Shown here: in pieces, positions 44,462-55,617 of the stretch
How the letters are laid out: every line of letters starts with the position of its first letter
Numbering within the stretch: position 1 is the stretch's first letter
NCBI GenBank assembly: GCA_964012805.1
Contig: CAXGUD010000007.1
Location: forward strand, 1-64,000
Source of the DNA: an uncultured Bacteriovoracaceae bacterium
Lineage (GTDB): Bacteria > Bdellovibrionota > Bacteriovoracia > Bacteriovoracales > Bacteriovoracaceae
Direction of reading: 5' to 3'
DNA length: 64,000 nucleotides
Notes under the pieces: generated by a model
Seen by the model: only the letters and a program-made list of their open reading frames with translations
What the model was told of the DNA's origin: nothing
The model's database searches: none
Made by a program: the position numbers and the translations under genes

Positions 44462-44875
44462 ATGGGAGTCATGGAGATGTTTAGTAAAGAGACAAAATTC
44501 TTAATCGTAGATGATATGCTTACTGCAAGGAAGTTTATTACCAAAAATCTTCGAGAGCTTGGCTATACTGAGTTCATTGAAGCTAGAAATGGGGAAGTTG
44601 CTTGGCAGATATTGTCGAAAGAAGATACTGAAATTGACTTCATTATTTCAGATTACGATATGCCTGTTATGTCTGGTTTTGAACTTCTTAAAAAAGTTAG
44701 AGCTTCCGAAAAGTTAAAAGAAACGATATTTTTAATGATTACGGCAGTCGGGCAAGAAAATAAGATGATGGAAGTTCTCGATGCTGGAGTTAATAACTAT
44801 CTTATCAAACCATTTGATAAAGAAGTCCTGGCAGAGAAACTAGAGTCTACTTGGGAAAGTATAAACAATAGGTAA
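44462..44875 (+). CDS. CheY-like response regulator
   Basis: FLIVDD, ISDYDMP, LMITA and YLIKPF motifs. Confidence 0.9.
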   Translation: MGVMEMFSKETKFLIVDDMLTARKFITKNLRELGYTEFIEARNGEVAWQILSKEDTEIDFIISDYDMPVMSGFELLKKVRASEKLKETIFLMITAVGQENKMMEVLDAGVNNYLIKPFDKEVLAEKLESTWESINNR

Positions 44876-44924
44876 AAGATTAATTTTTTTAAATTATTCT
44901 CGTGAAAGCTTTCTACGATTAATT

Positions 44925-46256
44925 TTATTTTATAATATAGGCGTCCAACCAGTTTTCTTCAGAAACGAAACGTATTCGGATGGCGCCTTTTTTTCCAACT
45001 GCGTCCGCAATTTCATCTCTTGTTTTTAATATTTCAATAGAAGAGGGAGCGATCTTGTTATCTTCAGTCGATTTTAACTTTGCTCCATCAATAATCTTTT
45101 CAATATGTAATGATAATTCTCTCGCAGGAATAGAGGACGGGTTATCCTCAAGAATCTTTTTTATAGTTTTTTCGGAGTAAGCAAACAGGAGTCCCCCTTT
45201 AAATTTAGGATCGAAAAAGCGAATTAGAGATGCAAATTGCACTGTTGGATCATCAAACTTTATGCAAAGTCTAGGTCTTTCAACAATGACATTCTTTCCC
45301 TCATTCTCCTTGAAGAGTTCTGAGCCAGCGGCCAGAAAAGGGTTAATGACATTAACATTCATTTTCATCCCAGCTCCACCGCCTTGGCTTCCACCACTGG
45401 AAGGTTGGGAGGCTGGTTTATTTTTCTTTTTAACGTCAATATTAATTGTTTTTAAAGCGTCTTGAAGGTCTTTTCTTGGATTAAAGGTTCTGTCTATACC
45501 CTTGTTTTGAAGAACTGTTAAGAGCTCTGAAGGTACATTTATAGACGATATAGGCAGTTTATTTTTTTCAGACTCTTTACAGTATTCCATGAGGACCTTT
45601 ATTTCTTTGTCGCTCATTCTTTCTTTTGACTTTTTGAAATCTAAAATTTGAATCATAACATTATTGTTAAGAAGAGCACTGTTAAGAGATTTGAATTCAT
45701 TAAAAAGTGCTGCATCCATTTCATTAGGAATATAGATATAGTAGATACCCTTTTTGAAAGCCGTTTTTAAAGATTTTGGTCCTTCTGGATATGAGCTCTT
45801 TATCAAGTTAACAAAATCCGTTCCTAAGCTTGATCTATATCTTTCTTTATTAATAAATTTAACTTCACTATCATTTCCCATGATTTCTTCATCTTCTGCG
45901 GAGATATCATCCCCTACTACCAGGACAGGAGTTGTAAGGTATAATTTATCGCATCGTGTTTTCCCAAGTATATCCTTCGGGTTTGTGAGGCCTTCGTCCG
46001 CAAATTGATTGCTTGTGTTAATAATGAGGATGAAGTTGTATGGCAGGAGCTTGTCTGCGCCTAAGATCAGCTTTTCTCTAGCAAGCTTGATTGTAGGAGA
46101 AAAGTCTGTAATTTCTACTTTTAATTCTTCAAAAATTTCTTTGGCCTGGTTAACCATTTCTCTGTCATTGGATATGATCATGGTTCTGAGTTTACTAGCG
46201 TATTTTTCATCAAAGTTTTGGTCTTCCATGAATTTCCTCTTTTTAAAAAATGCCAT
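44925..46256 (-). CDS. Multidomain signalling protein (degenerate REC, STAS-like, CheX-like)
   Basis: MNVNVINPFL resembles the CheX N-terminus; central STAS-like pattern. Confidence 0.5.
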   Translation of the reverse strand: MAFFKKRKFMEDQNFDEKYASKLRTMIISNDREMVNQAKEIFEELKVEITDFSPTIKLAREKLILGADKLLPYNFILIINTSNQFADEGLTNPKDILGKTRCDKLYLTTPVLVVGDDISAEDEEIMGNDSEVKFINKERYRSSLGTDFVNLIKSSYPEGPKSLKTAFKKGIYYIYIPNEMDAALFNEFKSLNSALLNNNVMIQILDFKKSKERMSDKEIKVLMEYCKESEKNKLPISSINVPSELLTVLQNKGIDRTFNPRKDLQDALKTINIDVKKKNKPASQPSSGGSQGGGAGMKMNVNVINPFLAAGSELFKENEGKNVIVERPRLCIKFDDPTVQFASLIRFFDPKFKGGLLFAYSEKTIKKILEDNPSSIPARELSLHIEKIIDGAKLKSTEDNKIAPSSIEILKTRDEIADAVGKKGAIRIRFVSEENWLDAYIIK

Positions 46257-46491
46257 CCTCTCTTATTTTAAGCTAATTAGTTTTTCTTTTTAAGGGGTAT
46301 GAATGTGACACTTTTAGTAATTTTCCTATTTTGTTGTGAGTTAACCATCTAAAAAAAAATAAGTTGACACTTTAACTTTATTTTAAGAACACTGTTTACT
46401 TACTTTTTTTTTACCCACCTCTTTGGAAGGAGGGTTAATTAAAAATAATTAATAAATAAAATCAAGACTTTTTTAAATAAGGGAGTAGAAA

Positions 46492-46845
46492 ATGTCTCAA
46501 AAAGTAGAAGCTTTAGGAATGATCGAAACGAGAGGTTTTGTCGCTATGGTAGAAGCCTCTGATGCAATGGTTAAAGCTGCTAATGTTCAGCTTGTGCGTT
46601 ATGAGAAAACTGGTGGTGGTTTTACAACTGCTGTCATAAGAGGAGACGTCGCTGCTGTTAAAGCCGCTATTGAAGCCGGTGAAAGGGCCGCTGAAAAAGT
46701 TGGGGAGCTTGTTTCTGTTCATGTCATTCCTAGACCTCATGCGAATGTTGATCTTGCTCTTCCACTTGGTGGGAAACATGAAGGTGCTGGTTACCAGGGT
46801 TCTAGAAAAGAAGTTTATGTTCAATCTGAAGGACCAACTGCTTAA
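46492..46845 (+). CDS. BMC-H hexameric shell protein
   Basis: [23 protein letters not shown] and HVIPRPH motifs (PF00936). Confidence 0.97.
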
Positions 46846-46876
46846 GAGATTCATATTAAATTTGATCAAATATTTG

Positions 46877-46920
46877 GGGGAAGGGAAAGAGAAGAAAATC
46901 GACTCCCTTCCTCTTTTTTT
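46877..46920 (+). terminator. Internal terminator-like hairpin after BMC-H
   Basis: GGGGAAGGGA/TCCCTTCCTC stem followed by T7. Confidence 0.7.
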
Positions 46921-46965
46921 CTGTGGTCAATAGGAATATTAAAAAGGGACTTTAGGGAGCAATCA

Positions 46966-47256
46966 ATGCAAATTGGTAAAATTATTGGAACTGCCGTTTC
47001 TACAAAAAAAGATGAAAAACTAGAAGGGCTTCGTTTTCAAATAGTTGAATATATAGAGCCCTCTGGAGAGTCAACAGGTAACCATGTTATTGCAGTCGAC
47101 TCTGTGGGAGCAGGAGTAGGAGAAGTGGTTTTAGTCGCATGTGGTAGTTCTGCCCGTCTTACAAACACTTCAAAGGACAAACCAGTAGATGCCATTATAA
47201 TGGCGATTGTAGACTCTTTAGAAGGAGAAGGGAAAACCTATTACCAGAGCTACTAG
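46966..47256 (+). CDS. BMC-P pentameric vertex protein (EutN/CcmL)
   Basis: GTAVSTKK, AVDSVGAGVGE, GSSAR and DAIIMAIVD motifs. Confidence 0.96.
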   Translation: MQIGKIIGTAVSTKKDEKLEGLRFQIVEYIEPSGESTGNHVIAVDSVGAGVGEVVLVACGSSARLTNTSKDKPVDAIIMAIVDSLEGEGKTYYQSY

Positions 47257-47358
47257 AGTATTTATTCACGAGAAATTTTAATTAAGTCAGTTTAGATTCT
47301 TTGTTTGAAAGGTTTAAGCAATGAAGACAATTGAACGAAGATCCGGAGAAAGAACGCT

Positions 47359-48825
47359 ATGAATTTTACTGATCAACAAATTAACTCTATCGTTGATAAA
47401 GTCATAGGACAACTTTCAAACACGAAGGGAAGTCCTGCGGAAGCTGTTAAGGAGGGGACCAAGGAGAGTTCAAAGTCCATACCCTCCAATTATATCACCT
47501 ACCCTCAATCATCTGGAAAGTTAGGTTGTTTTCTCGATATTGATTCCGCTATAGAAGCGGCTAGAAAAGCTTTTGAGGAATACAAGCTGATACCCTTAAA
47601 GCAAAGAAAAAAAATAATCGAAGCAATAAGAGTAATATGCCTTGAAAATGTAGACGAGATGTCCAAACTTGCTGTTGAAGAAACTGGTTTAGGAAGAGTT
47701 GCAGATAAGGTAAATAAGAATATTCTTGCCATTGAAAAAACCCCAGGAGTAGAGGACCTAAAGCCTTATACTTATACTGGAGACGATGGTTTAACTCTTT
47801 TGGAAAGGGCACCTTTTGGTGTTATTGGAAGTGTAACACCTTGTACGAATCCTTCAGAGACCATTATAAATAACGGAATTGGTATGATTGCTGGTGGAAA
47901 CTCCGTTGCTTTCAATCCACACCCTTCCGCCAAAAAAGTCTCTGCCTTCACAGTGAGCCTTATGAACAAGGCGATAATATCTGAGGGGGGACCTCCAAAC
48001 CTTCTTACAACAGTTGCGAATCCAACTATTGAATCGGCCCAAAAATTAATGGTTCATCCAAAAATTCGACTCCTTGTCGTTACAGGTGGACCTCATGTTG
48101 TGAATCAAGCAATGAAATCTGGTAAAAGAGTTATTGCCGCAGGACCTGGTAACCCTCCTGTTGTTGTTGATGAAACAGCTGACTTGGATAAAGCAGGTTG
48201 TGACATCGTGAAAAGTGCAAGTTGCGATAACAATATTATTTGTGTTGTTGAAAAAGAAATTATTGTAACTCATGCAGCTGCTGAAGGTCTAAAGAAGTCT
48301 CTCATTAAGCATGGAGCCGTGGAGTTAAGCCCTTACCAAACAAGGCGTTTAGAGAAGGTTGTTCTTACAGAGAATAAAAAGGCTAACAAAAAATGGGTTG
48401 GTAAAGACGTTCAGGAAATTTTAAAAGAGATTGGAATGGACGTAGATCCATCAAAAAGGTTGGCTTTTATGGAAACCAAGGCCGATCATCCTTTTGCAGT
48501 TGAAGAACTGCTTATGCCTGTTATTCCTCTTATTAGAGTTAAAGATATAGATGAGGCGATAGAGCTTGCTTACAAACTCGAAAAAAACTGCTTTCATACA
48601 GCAGCGATCCACTCAAAAAATATAGATCATATGCATAAAATGGCGGTGAAGATGAACTGCTCAATTTTTGTAAAAAATGGACCTGCTCTTGCTGGACTAG
48701 CGATGGAGGGGGAAGGACCAACGACTTTTACAATTGCTTCTCCTACTGGTGAAGGAAACACGACGGCCCGTCACTTCACAAGAACAAGACGGTGCGTTTT
48801 ATCAGGAAATTTTAGAATCACCTGA
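47359..48825 (+). CDS. CoA-acylating aldehyde dehydrogenase (EutE/PduP-like) with N-terminal encapsulation peptide
   Basis: PCTNPSET, GPGNPP, DNNIIC and TIASPTGEG motifs; N-terminal helix QINSIVDKVIGQL. Confidence 0.95.
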   Translation: MNFTDQQINSIVDKVIGQLSNTKGSPAEAVKEGTKESSKSIPSNYITYPQSSGKLGCFLDIDSAIEAARKAFEEYKLIPLKQRKKIIEAIRVICLENVDEMSKLAVEETGLGRVADKVNKNILAIEKTPGVEDLKPYTYTGDDGLTLLERAPFGVIGSVTPCTNPSETIINNGIGMIAGGNSVAFNPHPSAKKVSAFTVSLMNKAIISEGGPPNLLTTVANPTIESAQKLMVHPKIRLLVVTGGPHVVNQAMKSGKRVIAAGPGNPPVVVDETADLDKAGCDIVKSASCDNNIICVVEKEIIVTHAAAEGLKKSLIKHGAVELSPYQTRRLEKVVLTENKKANKKWVGKDVQEILKEIGMDVDPSKRLAFMETKADHPFAVEELLMPVIPLIRVKDIDEAIELAYKLEKNCFHTAAIHSKNIDHMHKMAVKMNCSIFVKNGPALAGLAMEGEGPTTFTIASPTGEGNTTARHFTRTRRCVLSGNFRIT

Positions 48826-48863
48826 TAAATTTTAGATTTTAGTGTAAAGGAATGTTTTAATTA

Positions 48864-50231
48864 GTGAGACCAGAGAATAAAACCAAAGATATTATGCTAA
48901 GAATGAGAAATGCTGGCGTTGTTGGTACTGATAAATTGTCCGTGCCAACTTACGTTAAGTTATCATCTAAAGCCGATTTGGTCATAGCAAATGGAGCGGA
49001 GTCTGAGCCTCTTTTACATTCTGAAAAGTCCCTTCTCCATGAAAAACCAGAACTTATTATTGACGGCATAAAAATAGCTATGGAAGCTACTGGGGCGCCT
49101 AAAGCCGTGATAGCTGTTCGTTCTTCTGAGAAAGAAAGAATGAGGTCTCTTTACTCACTTTTAAAAGAAGAGAAGAACATAGATATCTTCTATTTGGAGG
49201 ATTTTTATCCATCTGGAGATGAACCTATCCTAGTTTACGAGGTGACTAAAAAATTGATTCCCGAAGGGAAGACACCTTTAGATAAGGGAATTGTTGTAGA
49301 GAAGCTTTTAAGTTTTGCTTGGATGTATCAAGGTTATCATGGGAAACCAGTTACAGAAAGACCGATAAGTGTTGTTGGCGAGGTCCAAAGACCTCAGGTC
49401 ACTTGGTTTCCAATTGGGACTCTTTACAAGGATATTTTAAATTTTGCAGGTGGAACAACAGTTGATCTAAAAAATGCTGTTGTTTTTGATGGAGGACCTC
49501 TTCAAGGTGAGGTTGTTAAGGACCTAAATATTGGTATAGGTAAAAATACATCAGCCGTCATGGTGTTACCTAAAGACCATAAAGTTTCAAAAGTAAAAAT
49601 GAAAAATTTAGAGGAAATGATCCTTCAAAATCAGGGAGTCAGTGGTGACAGCTCTATGATGGAAGACCTTTGTCCCCGCTATCAATTGGGGTATGATATT
49701 CATCCATCTGAGGTCATAAAAAGTCTTCATTTTCCTTTGATGATGAAACCTTCTTCTTTGAGATCAGCTTACTCATGTAACGACTGCTCATTATGTGAAT
49801 ATATGGGGTCCTCGACTTTAAATGAATCCCCTCGATTAATTTATAATGAATTTAAAAAAAATCTTGCTCGTCAGGAAAAGAAAGTTTCTTTAAAAAGTGG
49901 TGAGAAAGTAAATAAAGTAAGGTTAAACTACCATTATAACAAAGTTTCATGTTCTCACTTAATCAAGCAGGTTCAAGTTGAGAAGTATGATTCTTTTAAC
50001 CGCTCGATCCTTCCAAAAACAAACCCTCAAAAAGTTCGGGTACCAGTGACGAGGCACAAAGGAACTCCAGCTAAACCTGTCGTTGTTGAAGGTCAAACTT
50101 TGAAAATGGGAGATGTTATTGCTTTTTCTCCTCCCGGCGAATTGGGGACAACTTATCATGCCTCTATTCCTGGCAGAGTGAGTGAAATTAATGATCACTG
50201 GGTTGAGATTATTAAAGGGAGGAATTCATGA
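48864..50231 (+). CDS. PduS/RnfC-like flavoprotein, degenerate
   Basis: NGAESEPLL, YPSGDE, DGGP, DLCPR, CxxCxxC and HASIPGRV motifs. Confidence 0.85.
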   Translation: MRPENKTKDIMLRMRNAGVVGTDKLSVPTYVKLSSKADLVIANGAESEPLLHSEKSLLHEKPELIIDGIKIAMEATGAPKAVIAVRSSEKERMRSLYSLLKEEKNIDIFYLEDFYPSGDEPILVYEVTKKLIPEGKTPLDKGIVVEKLLSFAWMYQGYHGKPVTERPISVVGEVQRPQVTWFPIGTLYKDILNFAGGTTVDLKNAVVFDGGPLQGEVVKDLNIGIGKNTSAVMVLPKDHKVSKVKMKNLEEMILQNQGVSGDSSMMEDLCPRYQLGYDIHPSEVIKSLHFPLMMKPSSLRSAYSCNDCSLCEYMGSSTLNESPRLIYNEFKKNLARQEKKVSLKSGEKVNKVRLNYHYNKVSCSHLIKQVQVEKYDSFNRSILPKTNPQKVRVPVTRHKGTPAKPVVVEGQTLKMGDVIAFSPPGELGTTYHASIPGRVSEINDHWVEIIKGRNS

Positions 50232-50794
50232 AAGAACCTACCTTAGGGATGATAGAGCTAAAATCTGTAGCAAGAGGTATTGTTGTTACAGATGCTATAG
50301 CTAAAAAAGCACAGGTGAAAATATTAGAGGCCCACGCGGTCCAGCCAGGTAAATTTATTATTTTAATCTGTGGTGAAGTAGCAGATGTTGAAGAGTCCTT
50401 GAAAGAAGGTGTTGAGGTCGGCTCCGACTTTATTATTAATTACCTCTTCCTTCCTTACATACACAGAGACATAATTCCGGCTTTGAAGGGCAACCTTGAA
50501 AAAGAGAAAAAAGGTCCTTTGGGATCCGTTGGTATTTTGGAGTCTTTTTCTATGGTCTCTTGTGTAAGGGCCTTAGATATTGCTTTAAAAAATACACCCT
50601 TAAAGTTACTGGAAGTTCGACTTGCTAAAGATTTAGGGGGGAAAGCCTATTTCGTTTTAAGTGGTCTTCTACCTGATGTTCAGGACTCTTTAAAGCTAGC
50701 AAGTGATTCAGTGAAAGAAGAGGGAATGTTGACGAATGTCGAAATAATACCAAACCCTCATTCAGACCTTATTGAGAAAGGTCTCTATTGGTAG
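50228..50794 (+). CDS. BMC-T shell protein (PduT-like)
   Basis: Tandem BMC domains: LGMIELKSVARG, PGKF, LGGKAY. Confidence 0.92.
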   Translation: MKEPTLGMIELKSVARGIVVTDAIAKKAQVKILEAHAVQPGKFIILICGEVADVEESLKEGVEVGSDFIINYLFLPYIHRDIIPALKGNLEKEKKGPLGSVGILESFSMVSCVRALDIALKNTPLKLLEVRLAKDLGGKAYFVLSGLLPDVQDSLKLASDSVKEEGMLTNVEIIPNPHSDLIEKGLYW

Positions 50795-50803
50795 GAATTA
50801 AAT

Positions 50804-51109
50804 ATGAAGTTAGCAAAAGTGATCGGTACAGTTGTTTGTACGGTAAAAGATCCTTCTTTAGATGGTCAAAAGATCCTTCTCATTCAACCTTTGGATGATG
50901 ATCAAAAACCGGCCGGGAGACCAATCGCCTCAGTCGATACGGCCAAGGCCGGAGAAGGTGATTTGGTTTATTGGGTATTATCGAGAGAAGCTGCTTTTGC
51001 TCTTCCCAATTCATTTGCCCCTGTGGACTCTGCAATCGTGGGGATTGTTGATGATGTTCATAAAGAAGACGTAGGCATAACAAATAAAGAAGAAATTTTT
51101 AGAAATTAA
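50804..51109 (+). CDS. BMC-P vertex protein
   Basis: AKVIGTVVCTVK; DSAIVGIVD. Confidence 0.95.
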   Translation: MKLAKVIGTVVCTVKDPSLDGQKILLIQPLDDDQKPAGRPIASVDTAKAGEGDLVYWVLSREAAFALPNSFAPVDSAIVGIVDDVHKEDVGITNKEEIFRN

Positions 51110-51130
51110 AGTGAAAGGAAGGCCTAAAAG

Positions 51131-51406
51131 ATGATTTTAGCAAGAGTAATAGGAAATGTGGTTTCTACAGAAAAGCACCCTTGTTACAAAGGCCATAAGA
51201 TTATGATTGTCCAACCAGTCAATGCTCACGGTGAGGATAAAGGATATTCCTTTTTATCTTGTGATGCTACTCAAGCGGGACCAGGTGACCTTGTTTTAGT
51301 TCAGCAAGAAGGAAATACAGCAAGGCAATTGTTGGGAACAAAAAATGATCCATTCCATTCCGTCATCGTAGGGATTGTTGATGAGATTCATGTTCCAAAG
51401 GAATAG
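51131..51406 (+). CDS. BMC-P vertex protein
   Basis: ARVIGNVVSTEKH; AGPGD; IVGIVD. Confidence 0.95.
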   Translation: MILARVIGNVVSTEKHPCYKGHKIMIVQPVNAHGEDKGYSFLSCDATQAGPGDLVLVQQEGNTARQLLGTKNDPFHSVIVGIVDEIHVPKE

Positions 51407-51444
51407 TTTAAAAAGTATTAATTAAAAAAATTGAAAAGAATAAT

Positions 51445-52392
51445 ATGGGAGAAGGTCAAATGATAGAAAAAAACACGAACTTGGAAGACGTTGTGTCTCT
51501 CATTAGTAAGAAGGTTGCAGAGAGGCTTAATGGTCAAATGACAGGAACAAATCCCTCAACGACTCATAAAATTGAAAAGAAGACTGAGGAAAGCGCAAAT
51601 GATTACAATCAAGAGCTAGCTTCAATGATTGATCACACTTTTTTAAAGCCTGAGGCTTCTAAATGCCAACTAGAGAAATTATGCGAAGAAGCAAGAGCTT
51701 ATAAGTTTGCTACAGTTTGTGTTAATTCTTGTAATATTCCTTTGGTAACAGAGCTTTTAAGAGGTTCTTCTGTTAAGCCTATTGCTGTTGTTGGTTTTCC
51801 TCTTGGAGCAGCGACGACACAATCAAAGGTCTTTGAATCAAAGGAAGCCATCAATCAGGGTGCAAGAGAGATTGATATGGTTGTTAACCTTGGGGCCCTA
51901 AAAAGCAAGGACTACGGGACAGTTTTTGAAGATATCAAGCAAGTTGTTGAAGCATCGGCTCCTTATCCAGTTAAAGTCATACTAGAGACTTCGAGTCTTA
52001 ATGATGAAGAAAAAGTCGTTGCTTGTGCTCTTTCAAAAACAGCGGGAGCTGCTTTTGTTAAAACTTCAACTGGTTTTGGTGGCGGCGGAGCAACTGTTGA
52101 CGACATTAAATTAATGAGGCGTATTGTTGGCAATTCAATCGGTGTTAAAGCTTCGGGTGGAGTCAGGACAACTCAAGACGCCAAAAATATGGTTGAAGCT
52201 GGAGCTAACAGAATTGGTGCTTCTTCAAGTATCTCTATTGTTAAGTTATCCTCTGATACAAGTAGTACAAAAGGCGGAAGAAAAACCTATGGCAAAAGAT
52301 ATGAGAGAAAACCTTATGTAAGAAGAGGATCTCGAGTCGTAGGATCTTCAACGATAGCGAAACCTCAAACTGGAAAAAGTGGGGGCTATTAG
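51445..52392 (+). CDS. deoC: Deoxyribose-phosphate aldolase with N-terminal encapsulation peptide (start may be 51460)
   Basis: IDHTFLKP, GFPLG, EIDMV, KTSTGF and KASGG motifs; N-terminal helix LEDVVSLISKKVAERL. Confidence 0.95.
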   Translation: MGEGQMIEKNTNLEDVVSLISKKVAERLNGQMTGTNPSTTHKIEKKTEESANDYNQELASMIDHTFLKPEASKCQLEKLCEEARAYKFATVCVNSCNIPLVTELLRGSSVKPIAVVGFPLGAATTQSKVFESKEAINQGAREIDMVVNLGALKSKDYGTVFEDIKQVVEASAPYPVKVILETSSLNDEEKVVACALSKTAGAAFVKTSTGFGGGGATVDDIKLMRRIVGNSIGVKASGGVRTTQDAKNMVEAGANRIGASSSISIVKLSSDTSSTKGGRKTYGKRYERKPYVRRGSRVVGSSTIAKPQTGKSGGY

Positions 52393-52506
52393 AATAAGTT
52401 CCAAATCTTTCAAAGAAATTAAGACGGATATTAAGTATTCAATATTAAAAACTAAATAATTAAATAATTACATAATTAAAATTTTAAGACTATTAGGGAG
52501 TAAAGA

Positions 52507-53157
52507 ATGTCAAAAGCGAATTTTGAATTGAGAACGTTAAGTTTTATAGACAGCCTTCAACCACAATTGGCCCAATATATGGCAAAGGATAATAGAGTTT
52601 ATGATCCTGAGGAGTATGATTCGGCCCTTTTTATTGAAATTGCCCCCGCCATGGAAATTCATGAAATGATTGATATTGCCCTCAAGTCAACAAGCTGTCG
52701 TCTTGGAACAGTTGTGACTGAGAGAGTTTTCGGCCTTATGGAAGTTCACCACAAAGATCAAGGTGAAGTAAGAGAAGCAGGCCACGCGATTCTTGAAGCG
52801 ACAGGCCTCACTGAAGGTGACCGCGCTGAAGTCAAAGTCATGTGTAATAAAATTATTAGAAGTATTGAGCAAGACCACTCCATTATGTTTACAGGGCTTT
52901 CCAGAGGAAACATGGTTCTTGCTGGTGAATCAGTCTTTATTATGGAAGTAACTCCAGCTGCTTACCTTTCCGCTGCTTGTAACGAAGCTTTAAAAGCTGC
53001 TGACGTTAAGCTTATTGATGTTAAGCCTTATGGTGCTTCTGGAAGGCTTATTATGAGTGGTGAAGAATCACAAATTGATTCAGCTGCTGAAGCTGCCAAT
53101 AAGCTTATTGCTAACTTAAACCAAATGAAAGAAACAGGCGGAAATCAATTAGGCTAG
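52507..53157 (+). CDS. BMC-T(dp) stacked trimer shell protein (CcmP/CsoS1D-like)
   Basis: LRTLSFIDSLQPQLA, ERVFG and ACNEALKAA motifs. Confidence 0.9.
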   Translation: MSKANFELRTLSFIDSLQPQLAQYMAKDNRVYDPEEYDSALFIEIAPAMEIHEMIDIALKSTSCRLGTVVTERVFGLMEVHHKDQGEVREAGHAILEATGLTEGDRAEVKVMCNKIIRSIEQDHSIMFTGLSRGNMVLAGESVFIMEVTPAAYLSAACNEALKAADVKLIDVKPYGASGRLIMSGEESQIDSAAEAANKLIANLNQMKETGGNQLG

Positions 53158-53208
53158 AAAGGAAACCCTTTCACCGAGTCTTAAGTAAAGTTTATCAGGA
53201 ATAAAAAA

Positions 53209-53979
53209 ATGGGGAATCGGAGAGAATATATAATTAGAGGCATTGTTGATATTTGCAGTAAGCTTGATCAAAAAGGGTTTGTTGCAAATCATGATGGCAA
53301 CGTGACAGCTAAGTTTGAGGATGGTTTTCTCGCGACTCCTACAGCAGAGGCGAAAGCCGCTATTACTCCTGAGATGATTTTAGATCTTGATAAGGAAGGA
53401 AAAAAGACTGGTGGGATTGGGAAGCCTTTTAGTGAATTGAACCTCCACCTTGCTGCATATAATGAAAGGGAGGAAGCTCGGGCCGTTGTTCATGCTCACC
53501 CTCCCTTTGCAACAGCAAGAGGGCTTGTGGGAAAACCACTCGAAATTTCTCTTCCTGAAGCCGTTGTTTCCATTGGTCACATCATTCCCGTAGCTGATTA
53601 CTCCATGCCGGGTAGTGTTGCTAATGATCGAGTCGTGTGCGAAGCTTTAAGACAAAGTGATGTCTTCATGATTGCAGGCAATGGTGTTTTAAGTATTGGT
53701 AAAAACTTAGAAGAAGCCTATTTGAGAGTGGAACTTCTAGAACATGTGGCCAAGATTGATTTTTATGCTACTTCTATGGGACCAGTGATGACTTTGCCAG
53801 AAGCTGACCTTCAAAAGCTTTTAGAAAAAAGAGCAAAGCTTGGTTTAGGGCCTAAAGCTTCCAATCACGTTACGAAAAATATTTTGGAAAATTATGATCA
53901 AGAAAAAGATAATATTCAATTTGGTCAACTCCAGGATATTATTGCTAAGGAAGTAAACCGGTATCTTGAAAATTCTTAA
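53209..53979 (+). CDS. Class II aldolase with C-terminal encapsulation peptide
   Basis: DGNV, SELNLH and VVHAHPP motifs; C-terminal helix LQDIIAKEVNRYL. Confidence 0.9.
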   Translation: MGNRREYIIRGIVDICSKLDQKGFVANHDGNVTAKFEDGFLATPTAEAKAAITPEMILDLDKEGKKTGGIGKPFSELNLHLAAYNEREEARAVVHAHPPFATARGLVGKPLEISLPEAVVSIGHIIPVADYSMPGSVANDRVVCEALRQSDVFMIAGNGVLSIGKNLEEAYLRVELLEHVAKIDFYATSMGPVMTLPEADLQKLLEKRAKLGLGPKASNHVTKNILENYDQEKDNIQFGQLQDIIAKEVNRYLENS

Positions 53980-54008
53980 AACGACTTAGACCTATTGAGG
54001 AGTAACTT

Positions 54009-54770
54009 ATGAGAGTTCCTTTTATCGCAGGCAATTGGAAGATGAATATGACAATCGCTGAAGCGGTTGAACTAGTCAATGGCATTCAGATTGGATTGAA
54101 GTGGCCTGAAGAAGTGGACGTGGTGGTTGCTCCACCTTTTACTGCATTAAAAATGATTTCTGAGGTTTCAAAAGATAGTTATATAGCAGTTTCAGCCCAA
54201 AATATTCATCAAGAAGAAAATGGCGCCTATACCGGTGAAATAGCTGCTTCATTCGTGAAGGATGCGGGCGCAACTTATGCCATCATTGGTCACTCAGAGA
54301 GGCGTCAATACTTTGGTGAAACTGATGAGGTGGTTAATAAAAAAGTAAGAGTTGCTTTAAAGCATGAACTTAAGCCTATTGTTTGTGTTGGTGAAACATT
54401 AGAGCAGCGGGAAAAAGGTGATTTTTTCACAGTCATCGAAGAACAGCTTTCAAAAGGCTTAGAAGACCTGACAAAAGTTTTGGCCTCTGAGATCGTCATT
54501 GCTTACGAGCCAGTATGGGCCATTGGAACTGGGAAAGTGGCGACTCCAACTCAAGTTGAAGAAGTTCATGAGAAAATAAGAAATTTCCTTAAAAAGACTT
54601 TTTCTGATGAAGTGGGAGAGTCTGTTCGAATCCTCTATGGGGGAAGTGTAAAGCCTAGTAACAGCCAGGAAATTCTGGCCCTTCCAAATGTTGATGGAGC
54701 TCTTGTTGGGGGAGCGAGCTTGAAGGCGCCTGATTTTATAAATATAATAAAAAGCCTTCCGTCAAAGTAG
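54009..54770 (+). CDS. tpiA: Triosephosphate isomerase
   Basis: AGNWKMN, GHSERR, AYEPVWAIGTG and YGGSV motifs. Confidence 0.98.
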   Translation: MRVPFIAGNWKMNMTIAEAVELVNGIQIGLKWPEEVDVVVAPPFTALKMISEVSKDSYIAVSAQNIHQEENGAYTGEIAASFVKDAGATYAIIGHSERRQYFGETDEVVNKKVRVALKHELKPIVCVGETLEQREKGDFFTVIEEQLSKGLEDLTKVLASEIVIAYEPVWAIGTGKVATPTQVEEVHEKIRNFLKKTFSDEVGESVRILYGGSVKPSNSQEILALPNVDGALVGGASLKAPDFINIIKSLPSK

Positions 54771-54849
54771 TGATCTTTCTTTACAGTAGAGCTTTTTAAG
54801 GTAGAATTTTGCACACAAATCGTAATCTCTCTAACGGGAAGAGGTATCT

Positions 54850-55617
54850 ATGAAATTATTAGAAGGAAAGAAAGCGCTAATTCTAGGAATCGCAAATGAT
54901 AAGTCTATTGCTTGGGGCATTACCAAAGCTCTTAAGGAGCATGGTGCCCAAGTTGGTCTTTCATACCTTAATGAAAAGCTGAAAACTAGAGTTCAGCCAC
55001 TTGCTGACGAAGTAGGTGCCGACTTTACTTTTGAATTAGATGTCACAAATAATGATCATTATGACAATATGCGGAGAGAAGTTATTGAAAAATGGAAGAA
55101 TGTTGATATCGTGGTCCACTCGTTGGCCTTTGCAAACAGAGATGACTTAAGAAGAGACTTTTCTGAAACATCAAGAGAGGGCTTTGCTCTCGCTTGTGAC
55201 GTCTCAGCTTTTTCTCTCATTGGTGTTTCAAATGCCTTAAAAGACTTAATGAACCCAGGTTCATCGATTATCTCTATGACTTATCACGGAGCTCAGCAAG
55301 TTATTAGCGGTTACAATGTAATGGGTGTTGCTAAAGCTGCTCTTGAAGCATCTTCTCGCTACTTGGCTTCTGATTTAGGAAATAAAGGAATTAGAGTTAA
55401 CTGTATTTCAGCTGGCCCTATTAAAACCCTCGCTTCTTCAGCCGTAAAAAATATAAGCGGCTTTACAAAAGTTATTGAAGAGAAAGCACCTCTAAAAAGA
55501 AATGTGTCGCCAGAAGATATTGGTGGAGCTGCTGTTTACTTGTCCTCTCCTCTATCAACAAATGTAACTGGTCAAGTTATCTACGTAGATTCAGGAATTT
55601 CAATTATGGGGGCTTAA
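54850..55617 (+). CDS. fabI: Enoyl-ACP reductase
   Basis: SIAWGI, YNVMGVAKAALE and SAGPIKTLA motifs. Confidence 0.96.
   Translation: MKLLEGKKALILGIANDKSIAWGITKALKEHGAQVGLSYLNEKLKTRVQPLADEVGADFTFELDVTNNDHYDNMRREVIEKWKNVDIVVHSLAFANRDDLRRDFSETSREGFALACDVSAFSLIGVSNALKDLMNPGSSIISMTYHGAQQVISGYNVMGVAKAALEASSRYLASDLGNKGIRVNCISAGPIKTLASSAVKNISGFTKVIEEKAPLKRNVSPEDIGGAAVYLSSPLSTNVTGQVIYVDSGISIMGA

Follow-up and report, generated by a model that had tools for sequence, protein, structure and literature searches.

The DNA considered here, which we call the window, is the stretch of 64,000 nucleotides at positions 1 to 64,000 (forward strand) of contig CAXGUD010000007.1 in assembly GCA_964012805.1, from an uncultured Bacteriovoracaceae bacterium. 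Between positions 46492 and 54770, eleven plus-strand open reading frames (ORFs), with successive gaps of 120, 102, 38, -4, 9, 21, 38, 114, 51 and 29 bp, encode a bacterial microcompartment (BMC) and its enzymes. Judged by its gene content, the locus is of the SPU5 type of the sugar-phosphate-utilising (SPU) microcompartments, a type already catalogued, and is not a new subtype. The genes, named from ORF calls, Pfam and NCBIfam profile matches and matches to PDB structures, are in order:

46492..46845, +, BMC-H, major shell hexamer, 117 aa (PF00936; standard KAA/PRPH interface and GGG pore motifs)
46966..47256, +, BMC-P pentamer 1, 96 aa (PF03319)
47359..48825, +, CoA-acylating aldehyde dehydrogenase (AldDH) of the EutE/PduP type (NF011927)
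48864..50231, +, PduS/MNdh-like protein, degenerate (PF01512, SLBB and RnfC_N domains)
50228..50794, +, PduT-like single-layer BMC-T (BMC-Ts) with tandem BMC domains (Pfam/NCBIfam; pore motif QPGK)
50804..51109, +, BMC-P pentamer 2, 101 aa (PF03319)
51131..51406, +, BMC-P pentamer 3, 91 aa (PF03319)
51445..52392, +, DeoC (deoxyribose-phosphate aldolase, DERA), the signature enzyme (TIGR00126; EIDMV, FVKTSTG and GVKASGG motifs intact)
52507..53157, +, stacked, gated BMC-T (Tdp), 216 aa, with tandem BMC domains (PDB matches)
53209..53979, +, class II aldolase-like protein with the FucA fold (PF00596; C-terminal encapsulation-peptide-like helix)
54009..54770, +, triosephosphate isomerase (TIM or TPI, gene tpiA; PF00121; catalytic motifs intact, no extension)

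The initial annotation of this DNA had described eleven co-oriented genes with a full shell set (one BMC-H, two BMC-T and three BMC-P) accompanied by AldDH, DeoC, a class II aldolase, TpiA and a PduS-like protein; the ORFs and profiles bear out both the inventory and the names, and all 11 reading frames are intact. The AldDH scores 655 bits against NF011927 (cut-off 403), has its best PDB matches in 5jfl, 5jfn, 6gvs and 4c3s, carries within NIICVVEKE a cysteine which we take to be at the expected catalytic position, and begins with an encapsulation-peptide-like helix common to 15 aligned loci. DeoC scores 271 bits against TIGR00126 (cut-off 117) and bears an N-terminal amphipathic extension. 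The BMC-H, which the initial annotation had likened to that of Haliangium ochraceum, indeed finds its best PDB match among natural proteins in HO-5815 of that species (E 1.8e-41; the score of an engineered tandem fusion is higher), and the best matches of the Tdp (7dhq, HO-5816, CcmP and CsoS1D) all lie between E 3e-52 and 4e-46, a narrow range that would not by itself place the Tdp in the CsoS1D-containing clade of SPU5. The four BMC-domain matches of the genome are all inside this locus, and there are no satellite shell genes.

The initial annotation had rightly named the SPU class, which is represented here by a DeoC/DERA (pfam01791) with its catalytic residues (TIGR00126 over cut-off, motifs intact) and an acylating AldDH with an encapsulation peptide (EP). 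The SPU5 type is represented by the lack of RpiB (pfam02502) in the locus and by a pfam00596 aldolase with a C-terminal EP, and gene order and lengths also agree with it. The BMC-Ts pore motif (QPGK) departs from the SPU5 pattern, and we therefore file the locus as a derived variant rather than a plain member. The 2021 catalogue describes SPU5 as having AldDH, no RpiB and often DeoC with a class II aldolase, and lists among its members a Bdellovibrionales, an unclassified Halobacteriovoraceae, Gamma- and Deltaproteobacteria and a Chloroflexi genome (Sutter et al. 2021, PMC8217296 supplements). The initial annotation had correctly reported that the locus lacks RpiB, PduL/Pta, AckA, alcohol dehydrogenase and a regulator, and had taken this to mean that it may be a distinct subtype. 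That suggestion must be given up, since a missing RpiB is exactly what describes SPU5, already listed for Bdellovibrionales and Halobacteriovoraceae; the match to a described subtype, SPU or HO (the Haliangium ochraceum model shell), which the annotation itself had named as fatal to its proposal, is largely what we find. Neither TIM nor the aldolase is foreign to the class: the original SPU definition already includes TIM (PMC4207490), and archaeal SPU operons carry TPI and a class II aldolase (PMC12747264). In a four-protein tree 14 SPU5-arranged loci stand apart from 14 HO-arranged ones (SH-aLRT 100).

Redox module, aldolases and tpiA

The motif CP(G/S)K is reported to occur on all BMC-Ts that are paired with MNdh (Sutter et al. 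2024, PMC11626177). Here the glycine loop of the PduS-like protein has changed from GAGGAGFP to GTDKLSVP, and only four of its eight motif cysteines (C270, C305, C308 and C311) are kept, the set for one cluster being lost. Of 14 loci that have a BMC-Ts, 10 keep its pore cysteine, all 10 with intact PduS motifs, and in the four without it PduS is degenerate (three) or missing (one). Compared with its counterpart in the closest named locus (L001, from a Bacteriovoracales bacterium, with the same operon and flanks and a DeoC 80% identical), PduS has a nonsynonymous divergence (dN) of 0.39, against 0.055-0.16 for the other 11 genes. Three control pairs were compared; in one, PduS equals AldDH (0.077 and 0.080), and in another it is the fastest gene by a smaller margin (0.20 against up to 0.16). 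Its frame is whole and its dN/dS (S, synonymous) is about 0.2, so that it may keep a structural role. From these changes we infer that PduS is inactive, and no NAD+ recycler is evident. The flanking fabI was considered as an organelle sink for NADH and rejected, as it has no extension, is adjacent in only three mapped loci and owes its position to shared flanks. How NAD+ is regenerated in metabolosomes that lack recycling enzymes has been stated to be an open question (PMC11626177); the matched operons of this family, with MNdh intact (10 loci) or eroded or lost (four loci), offer a test of the permeability of shells to cofactors.

The operon aldolase has a predicted structure (pLDDT 89) with the fold of FucA and DrdA (TM 0.90 to 1dzw and 6btg), and aldolases of the PF00596/FucA fold are distinct from the fructose-bisphosphate aldolase (FBA) family. 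It departs from the FucA type, with its glutamate and three metal-binding histidines: E76, H95 and H97 are kept, Asn158 aligns with FucA His155 and His28 with FucA Thr26, and there is F at FucA Ser71 and A at FucA Gly44. All 13 of the operon copies of this type have Asn158 and His28, and these two together with E76, H95 and H97 are invariant in the best 120 of 1182 homologues, chosen by their likeness to the query. The NHDGN proteins fall into a single clade (SH-aLRT 99), to which satellites in HO-type genomes also belong; four of these satellites keep His155, and the idea that His28 simply compensates for its loss is weakened by homologues that have both. Such a protein may have an altered chemistry or, by analogy, may be a scaffold like the RpiB of SPU6, which is near-inactive (PMC11585597). 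The class II aldolase has been suggested to make fructose-1,6-bisphosphate (PMC11585597). We doubt this, the fold being PF00596/FucA rather than FBA, and the altered site likewise argues against the suggestion. A literature search on the site gave nothing specific among the matches listed.

A further aldolase (contig C33:17977-18750), with three histidines and a C-terminal helix, falls in one group (SH-aLRT 98) with the aldolases that the operons of genera g213 and g217 carry as their second. Canonical three-histidine tailed aldolases of this kind (at least 49% identity) occur in 7 of the 151 host-family genomes, all organelle-bearing, in the operon of four and as a satellite in three including the host; the C33 protein is a probable satellite cargo, and same-genus genomes also keep a tail-bearing satellite. 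A separate, untagged aldolase lies beside mtnA on contig C9.

The operon tpiA is the only one found in the genome. On contig C86, 106 bp separate pgk from the following secG, inside the contig, and there is no tpiA in the gap-pgk-secG cluster. Among 36 pgk loci compared, the slot lacks tpiA in 7 of the 15 organelle-bearing genomes (all three of this genus and all four of g216); in the 21 organelle-free genomes it is empty in one true case, another having tpiA about 2 kb beyond it. Five of the seven were confirmed to have a single TIM, and one gave none (72% complete, operon cut). The four genomes whose operon is without tpiA keep the housekeeping copy. There is no conserved promoter before tpiA, the candidate site there not being kept in L001, and co-transcription with the organelle operon is therefore likely. 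It would be unusual for an accessory organelle to become tied to core metabolism in this way, through an operon with the sole tpiA.

Proposed pathway and competing explanations

As the probable role of this SPU5 operon, we favour a shell that encloses DeoC and the acylating AldDH and would convert deoxyribose-5-phosphate arising from salvaged DNA nucleosides to glyceraldehyde-3-phosphate (GAP) plus acetyl-CoA, probably without a working NAD+ recycler. The reaction sequence, in which GAP and acetaldehyde are formed and the latter becomes acetyl-CoA, had been put forward in the initial annotation, and we judge it right as the likely job. Nucleosides would enter via NupC, Pdp/PunA would release deoxyribose-1-phosphate, and a PGM-family mutase would substitute for the missing DeoB; deoxyribose-5-phosphate would then enter the shell, where acetaldehyde would be retained and oxidised. 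As the organelle lacks a phosphotransacylase (PTAC), an alcohol dehydrogenase (AlcDH) and an intact MNdh, both CoA/acetyl-CoA and NAD+/NADH would need a way through the shell, for which the gated Tdp is the most plausible candidate. GAP would exit and be handled by the untagged, probably cytosolic TIM, which would also serve central metabolism, so that at least the 3' end of the operon would be expressed whenever TIM is needed. The DNA might come from prey, dead cells or dissolved nucleosides, and the data do not separate these sources. Elsewhere in the genome, contig C8 groups a pyrimidine-nucleoside phosphorylase, a purine nucleoside phosphorylase, a cytidine deaminase and NupC; pta-ackA is on C2, an untagged RpiB on C10, and one iron-type alcohol dehydrogenase on C26, in a cluster labelled from sequence reading as polyamine/glutamine-type. 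PduL was not found (none of five genomes). Deoxyribose-5-phosphate as substrate is supported by a genome (G239) with deoB directly 3' of the operon tpiA, and by deoC itself, whose operon copy was the sole one found in 9 of the 14 further family genomes that bear the organelle.

Several points weigh against this scheme. DeoB was not found in the host genome and was over the cut-off in only 3 of 17 genomes, and the 592-aa PGM-family protein is a candidate mutase only. The host has a second, untagged deoC on contig C1, which means that the organelle is not needed to cleave deoxyribose-5-phosphate, and a deoxyribose scheme gives no part to the class II aldolase, which nearly every such operon carries. 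The activity of DERA on deoxyribose-5-phosphate has been shown in vitro for an SPU6 enzyme only (PMC11585597), so that this support comes from a type other than SPU5. The passage of cofactors, which may occur, has to be supposed. Codon usage gives no sign of high expression: relative to ribosomal genes, the 11 scored genes (fabI included, BMC-H excluded) lie at the 11th to 86th percentile, a spread that says little about expression.

A rival explanation gives the organelle a second, or the main, input. Its class II aldolases would cleave a deoxy-ketose-1-phosphate to dihydroxyacetone phosphate (DHAP) and an aldehyde, TIM would then convert the DHAP, and the candidate substrates would be 5-deoxyribulose-1-phosphate from 5'-deoxyadenosine, or fuculose- or rhamnulose-1-phosphate from cell-surface sugars; such a route would be compatible with that of DeoC. 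The FucA/DrdA fold speaks for it, as do the production of DHAP and acetaldehyde by DrdA (PMC6079011), the adjacent tpiA, the strong conservation of E76, H95, H97 and H28 (120 of 120 among the best homologues), the presence of homologues beside MTAP in two HO-type genomes and beside hpt/upp in others, and the confinement of tailed three-histidine aldolases to organelle-bearing genomes. However, the operon copy lacks the third metal histidine and has its pocket altered at Ser71 and Gly44, no MTAP was found in the host genome, the untagged aldolase beside mtnA is already there, and 8 of the 15 family genomes with the organelle yielded no satellite aldolase. We consider such an input rather unlikely.

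The initial annotation had seen in the operon a candidate for a predation-specific organelle that could confine acetaldehyde during the digestion of prey DNA. As it had supposed, the host comes from a probable predatory lineage: it is a Bacteriovoracales relative, from a predatory family, and is probably predatory by descent. Its genome, 4.47 Mb in 130 contigs and with a completeness score of 100%, encodes an HMG-CoA reductase, an enzyme linked to predators. Histidinol dehydrogenase was not found in it and is present in 3 of the 151 family genomes. These traits, the Bacteriovoracales origin of the closest named locus and the occurrence of BMC domains in 31 of 401 surveyed genomes of the phylum would fit a predatory role. 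Against it, the organelle AldDH occurs in 15 of 151 family genomes, leaving 136 without it, while deoC is found in 135: some nine-tenths of its relatives get by on deoC without the organelle, which argues against a role specific to predation and leaves the special link to prey DNA unsupported. SPU5 is moreover catalogued in Gammaproteobacteria and Chloroflexi (PMC8217296), and close homologues of the aldolase are labelled Aminicenantes. Amino-acid auxotrophy is a trait of Bdellovibrionota (PMC11988736), whereas the host encodes a true ilvC, which only 4 of 151 family genomes have, a trpE within the window and a cluster labelled, from sequence reading, as inositol-type. By these genes it is less auxotrophic than most of its family, and as ilvC and trpE are kept, obligate predation is unproven and doubtful. 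Among titles and the opening lines of abstracts, no literature was found that links microcompartments with predation in Bdellovibrionota. A predation-specific organelle is, all told, improbable. More improbable still is an organelle decaying in this lineage, its operon being kept mainly for the sole tpiA. The eroded PduS/MNdh and pore cysteine, the second deoC, the DeoB that was not found and the vanished housekeeping tpiA would be expected of it, but the 11 frames are whole, shell genes, AldDH and aldolase have a dN of 0.055-0.14 against a near-saturated dS (versus L001), the targeting helices are kept, and same-genus genomes retain the tailed satellite aldolase.

Beyond the deoxyribose-5-phosphate scheme itself, a bolder synthesis can be offered tentatively, as something we would sooner doubt than accept. 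All known internal routes of cofactor recycling would have been discarded under continued purifying selection, with NAD(H) and CoA crossing the shell; the operon would have become essential and always on through the cell's sole TIM, captured twice in the family; and the Asn158/His28 aldolase would embody either a new metal-site chemistry or a non-catalytic packing scaffold in place of the near-inactive RpiB that other SPU types have.

Distribution, expression and surroundings

Mapping covered 17 SPU5-type loci, that of the window included (L149 and L160-L164 were left out as duplicates). The full 11-gene order is found in eight; of the others, one is without PduS, three have a second aldolase in place of tpiA, one is reduced and three are cut by contig ends. 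In the remaining one (L118, G177:C6:125000-143000), the SPU5-type shell operon is joined to EutC and a further BMC-T beside an amino-acid permease; it is without DeoC and aldolase, and its PduS has lost the same Fe-S cysteine set. This looks like a switch of signature enzyme to ethanolamine. In the four-protein tree two loci of other families nest among those of the host family, which suggests transfer, and a Pgk tree with 7 of 33 branches well supported resolves too little to tell if the family inherited the organelle from its ancestor. The GC and GC3 (third-position GC) of the locus in the window are close to the genome values, the latter indicating that the operon is not a recent arrival. 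Fifteen further mapped loci show the HO order. Two families of the same phylum with small genomes of 1.3-2.2 Mb (f7 and f8; L127-L129, L131-L133) keep HO-type microcompartments, BMC domains being present in 8 of 9 f7 genomes; there the NHDGN aldolase adjoins hpt and upp. Behind six HO-type operons (L120-L124, L126) come DUF1284 and a soluble lytic transglycosylase, as a fusion in three genomes, and at L132:6479-7555 a BMC-P domain opens a 358-aa frame, which suggests a pentamer fused to the downstream protein.

Two features flank the operon:

46355..46409, +, conserved non-coding block, candidate promoter/operator, 5' of BMC-H (contains TTGACA at 46364-46369)
54850..55617, +, fabI, enoyl-ACP reductase (Pfam/NCBIfam), a flanking housekeeping gene not counted in the organelle

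The non-coding block is conserved in three aligned upstream regions. No good -10 box was seen with its TTGACA, and a promoter scan gave 15 sites against 19.9 expected by chance. Two copies of GACACTTT, some 60 bp from each other, lie in the divergent intergenic region 46300-46410, the downstream one inside the genus-conserved block. Co-oriented fabI starts 79 bp 3' of tpiA and probably has its own promoter (54780-54807). Just upstream of BMC-H, at 44462-46256, are a stand-alone receiver-domain gene and, divergent from BMC-H, a gene for a 443-aa protein without a Pfam match, both conserved only within the genus; regulation of the operon by this neighbouring response regulator was considered and set aside, none being found beside the other mapped loci. 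Two marine metatranscriptome studies yielded small shares (0.06) of the locus. Parts of BMC-H, PduS, BMC-P and Tdp were covered by short low-depth contigs. Of three runs, two covered a 19-kb control stretch about as thinly and the third did not cover it, so nothing can be concluded about expression of the locus. Further downstream (57677-60979, minus strand) a 1100-aa protein has four scytovirin-type lectin stretches (PF20888, E 4.5e-60) and proline-lysine linkers, with a homologue at the same place in L001; it is a possible glycan-binding adhesin for prey or particles.

Comparison with known systems

This type of organelle and its occurrence in relatives of Bdellovibrio are already in print, and the residual value of the locus is for microcompartment specialists. 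Four of its features, the worn redox module, the tpiA, the aldolase site and the satellite aldolase, were not met with in the available parts of the SPU and MNdh literature, some supplements aside. In the known SPU5 pattern DERA and AldDH carry N-terminal EPs, the aldolase carries a C-terminal one, and PduS and TPI are untagged (Dwyer et al. 2024, PMC11585597); this pattern recurs here in the EP at the AldDH N-terminus, the N-terminal extension of DeoC, the C-terminal EP of the aldolase and the untagged TPI and PduS. Shared too are the lack of RpiB in the locus, the BMC-P triplet, the one standard BMC-H, the PduS-adjacent BMC-Ts and the Tdp, which has the length of the catalogued SPU5 Tdp A2X86_14105. 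In the catalogued Bdellovibrionales the shell tags are H 14145, Ts 14125, P 14120, P 14115 and Tdp 14105 (PMC8217296), and the spacing is the same here, three genes separating H from Ts and one separating P from Tdp, where the catalogue's non-shell tags are inferred. The locus differs from SPU5 in a BMC-Ts that lacks the pore cysteine, a degenerate PduS, a tpiA of which no other copy was found and a basic tail at the DeoC C-terminus, and there is a probable satellite cargo gene where the catalogue's available text states no satellite loci (PMC8217296). The DeoC tail, with 12 K/R in the last 40 residues ahead of a terminal Tyr, is restricted to this genus and one further locus (L125) among 14 aligned DeoC, and is reminiscent of the DNA-binding, K/R-rich tails that archaeal SPU pentamers carry (PMC12747264).

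With the MNdh/BMC-T(SE) module the locus shares adjacent PduS-like and PduT-like genes and the same domain set, but QPGK replaces CP(G/S)K, and the PduS glycine loop and one Fe-S cysteine set are lost. The operon aldolase shares with FucA and DrdA (PMC6079011) the fold (TM about 0.9), the catalytic Glu and two of the metal histidines, and differs from them in its Asn for the third His, a new invariant His in NHDGN, altered phosphate-pocket residues, a C-terminal targeting helix and an identity of just 24-29%. Finally, the HO type provides the closest natural BMC-H structure and likewise has a single BMC-H, a BMC-P triplet and AldDH, with no PTAC and no AlcDH, and related NHDGN class II aldolases are present as satellites in HO-type Bdellovibrionota genomes. 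However, the mapped HO loci run Tdp-H-P-AldDH-Ts-P-P and form a separate clade, the catalogue gives HO two Tdp where this genome has one (PMC8217296), and DeoC, aldolase, TPI and PduS here sit in the main operon.

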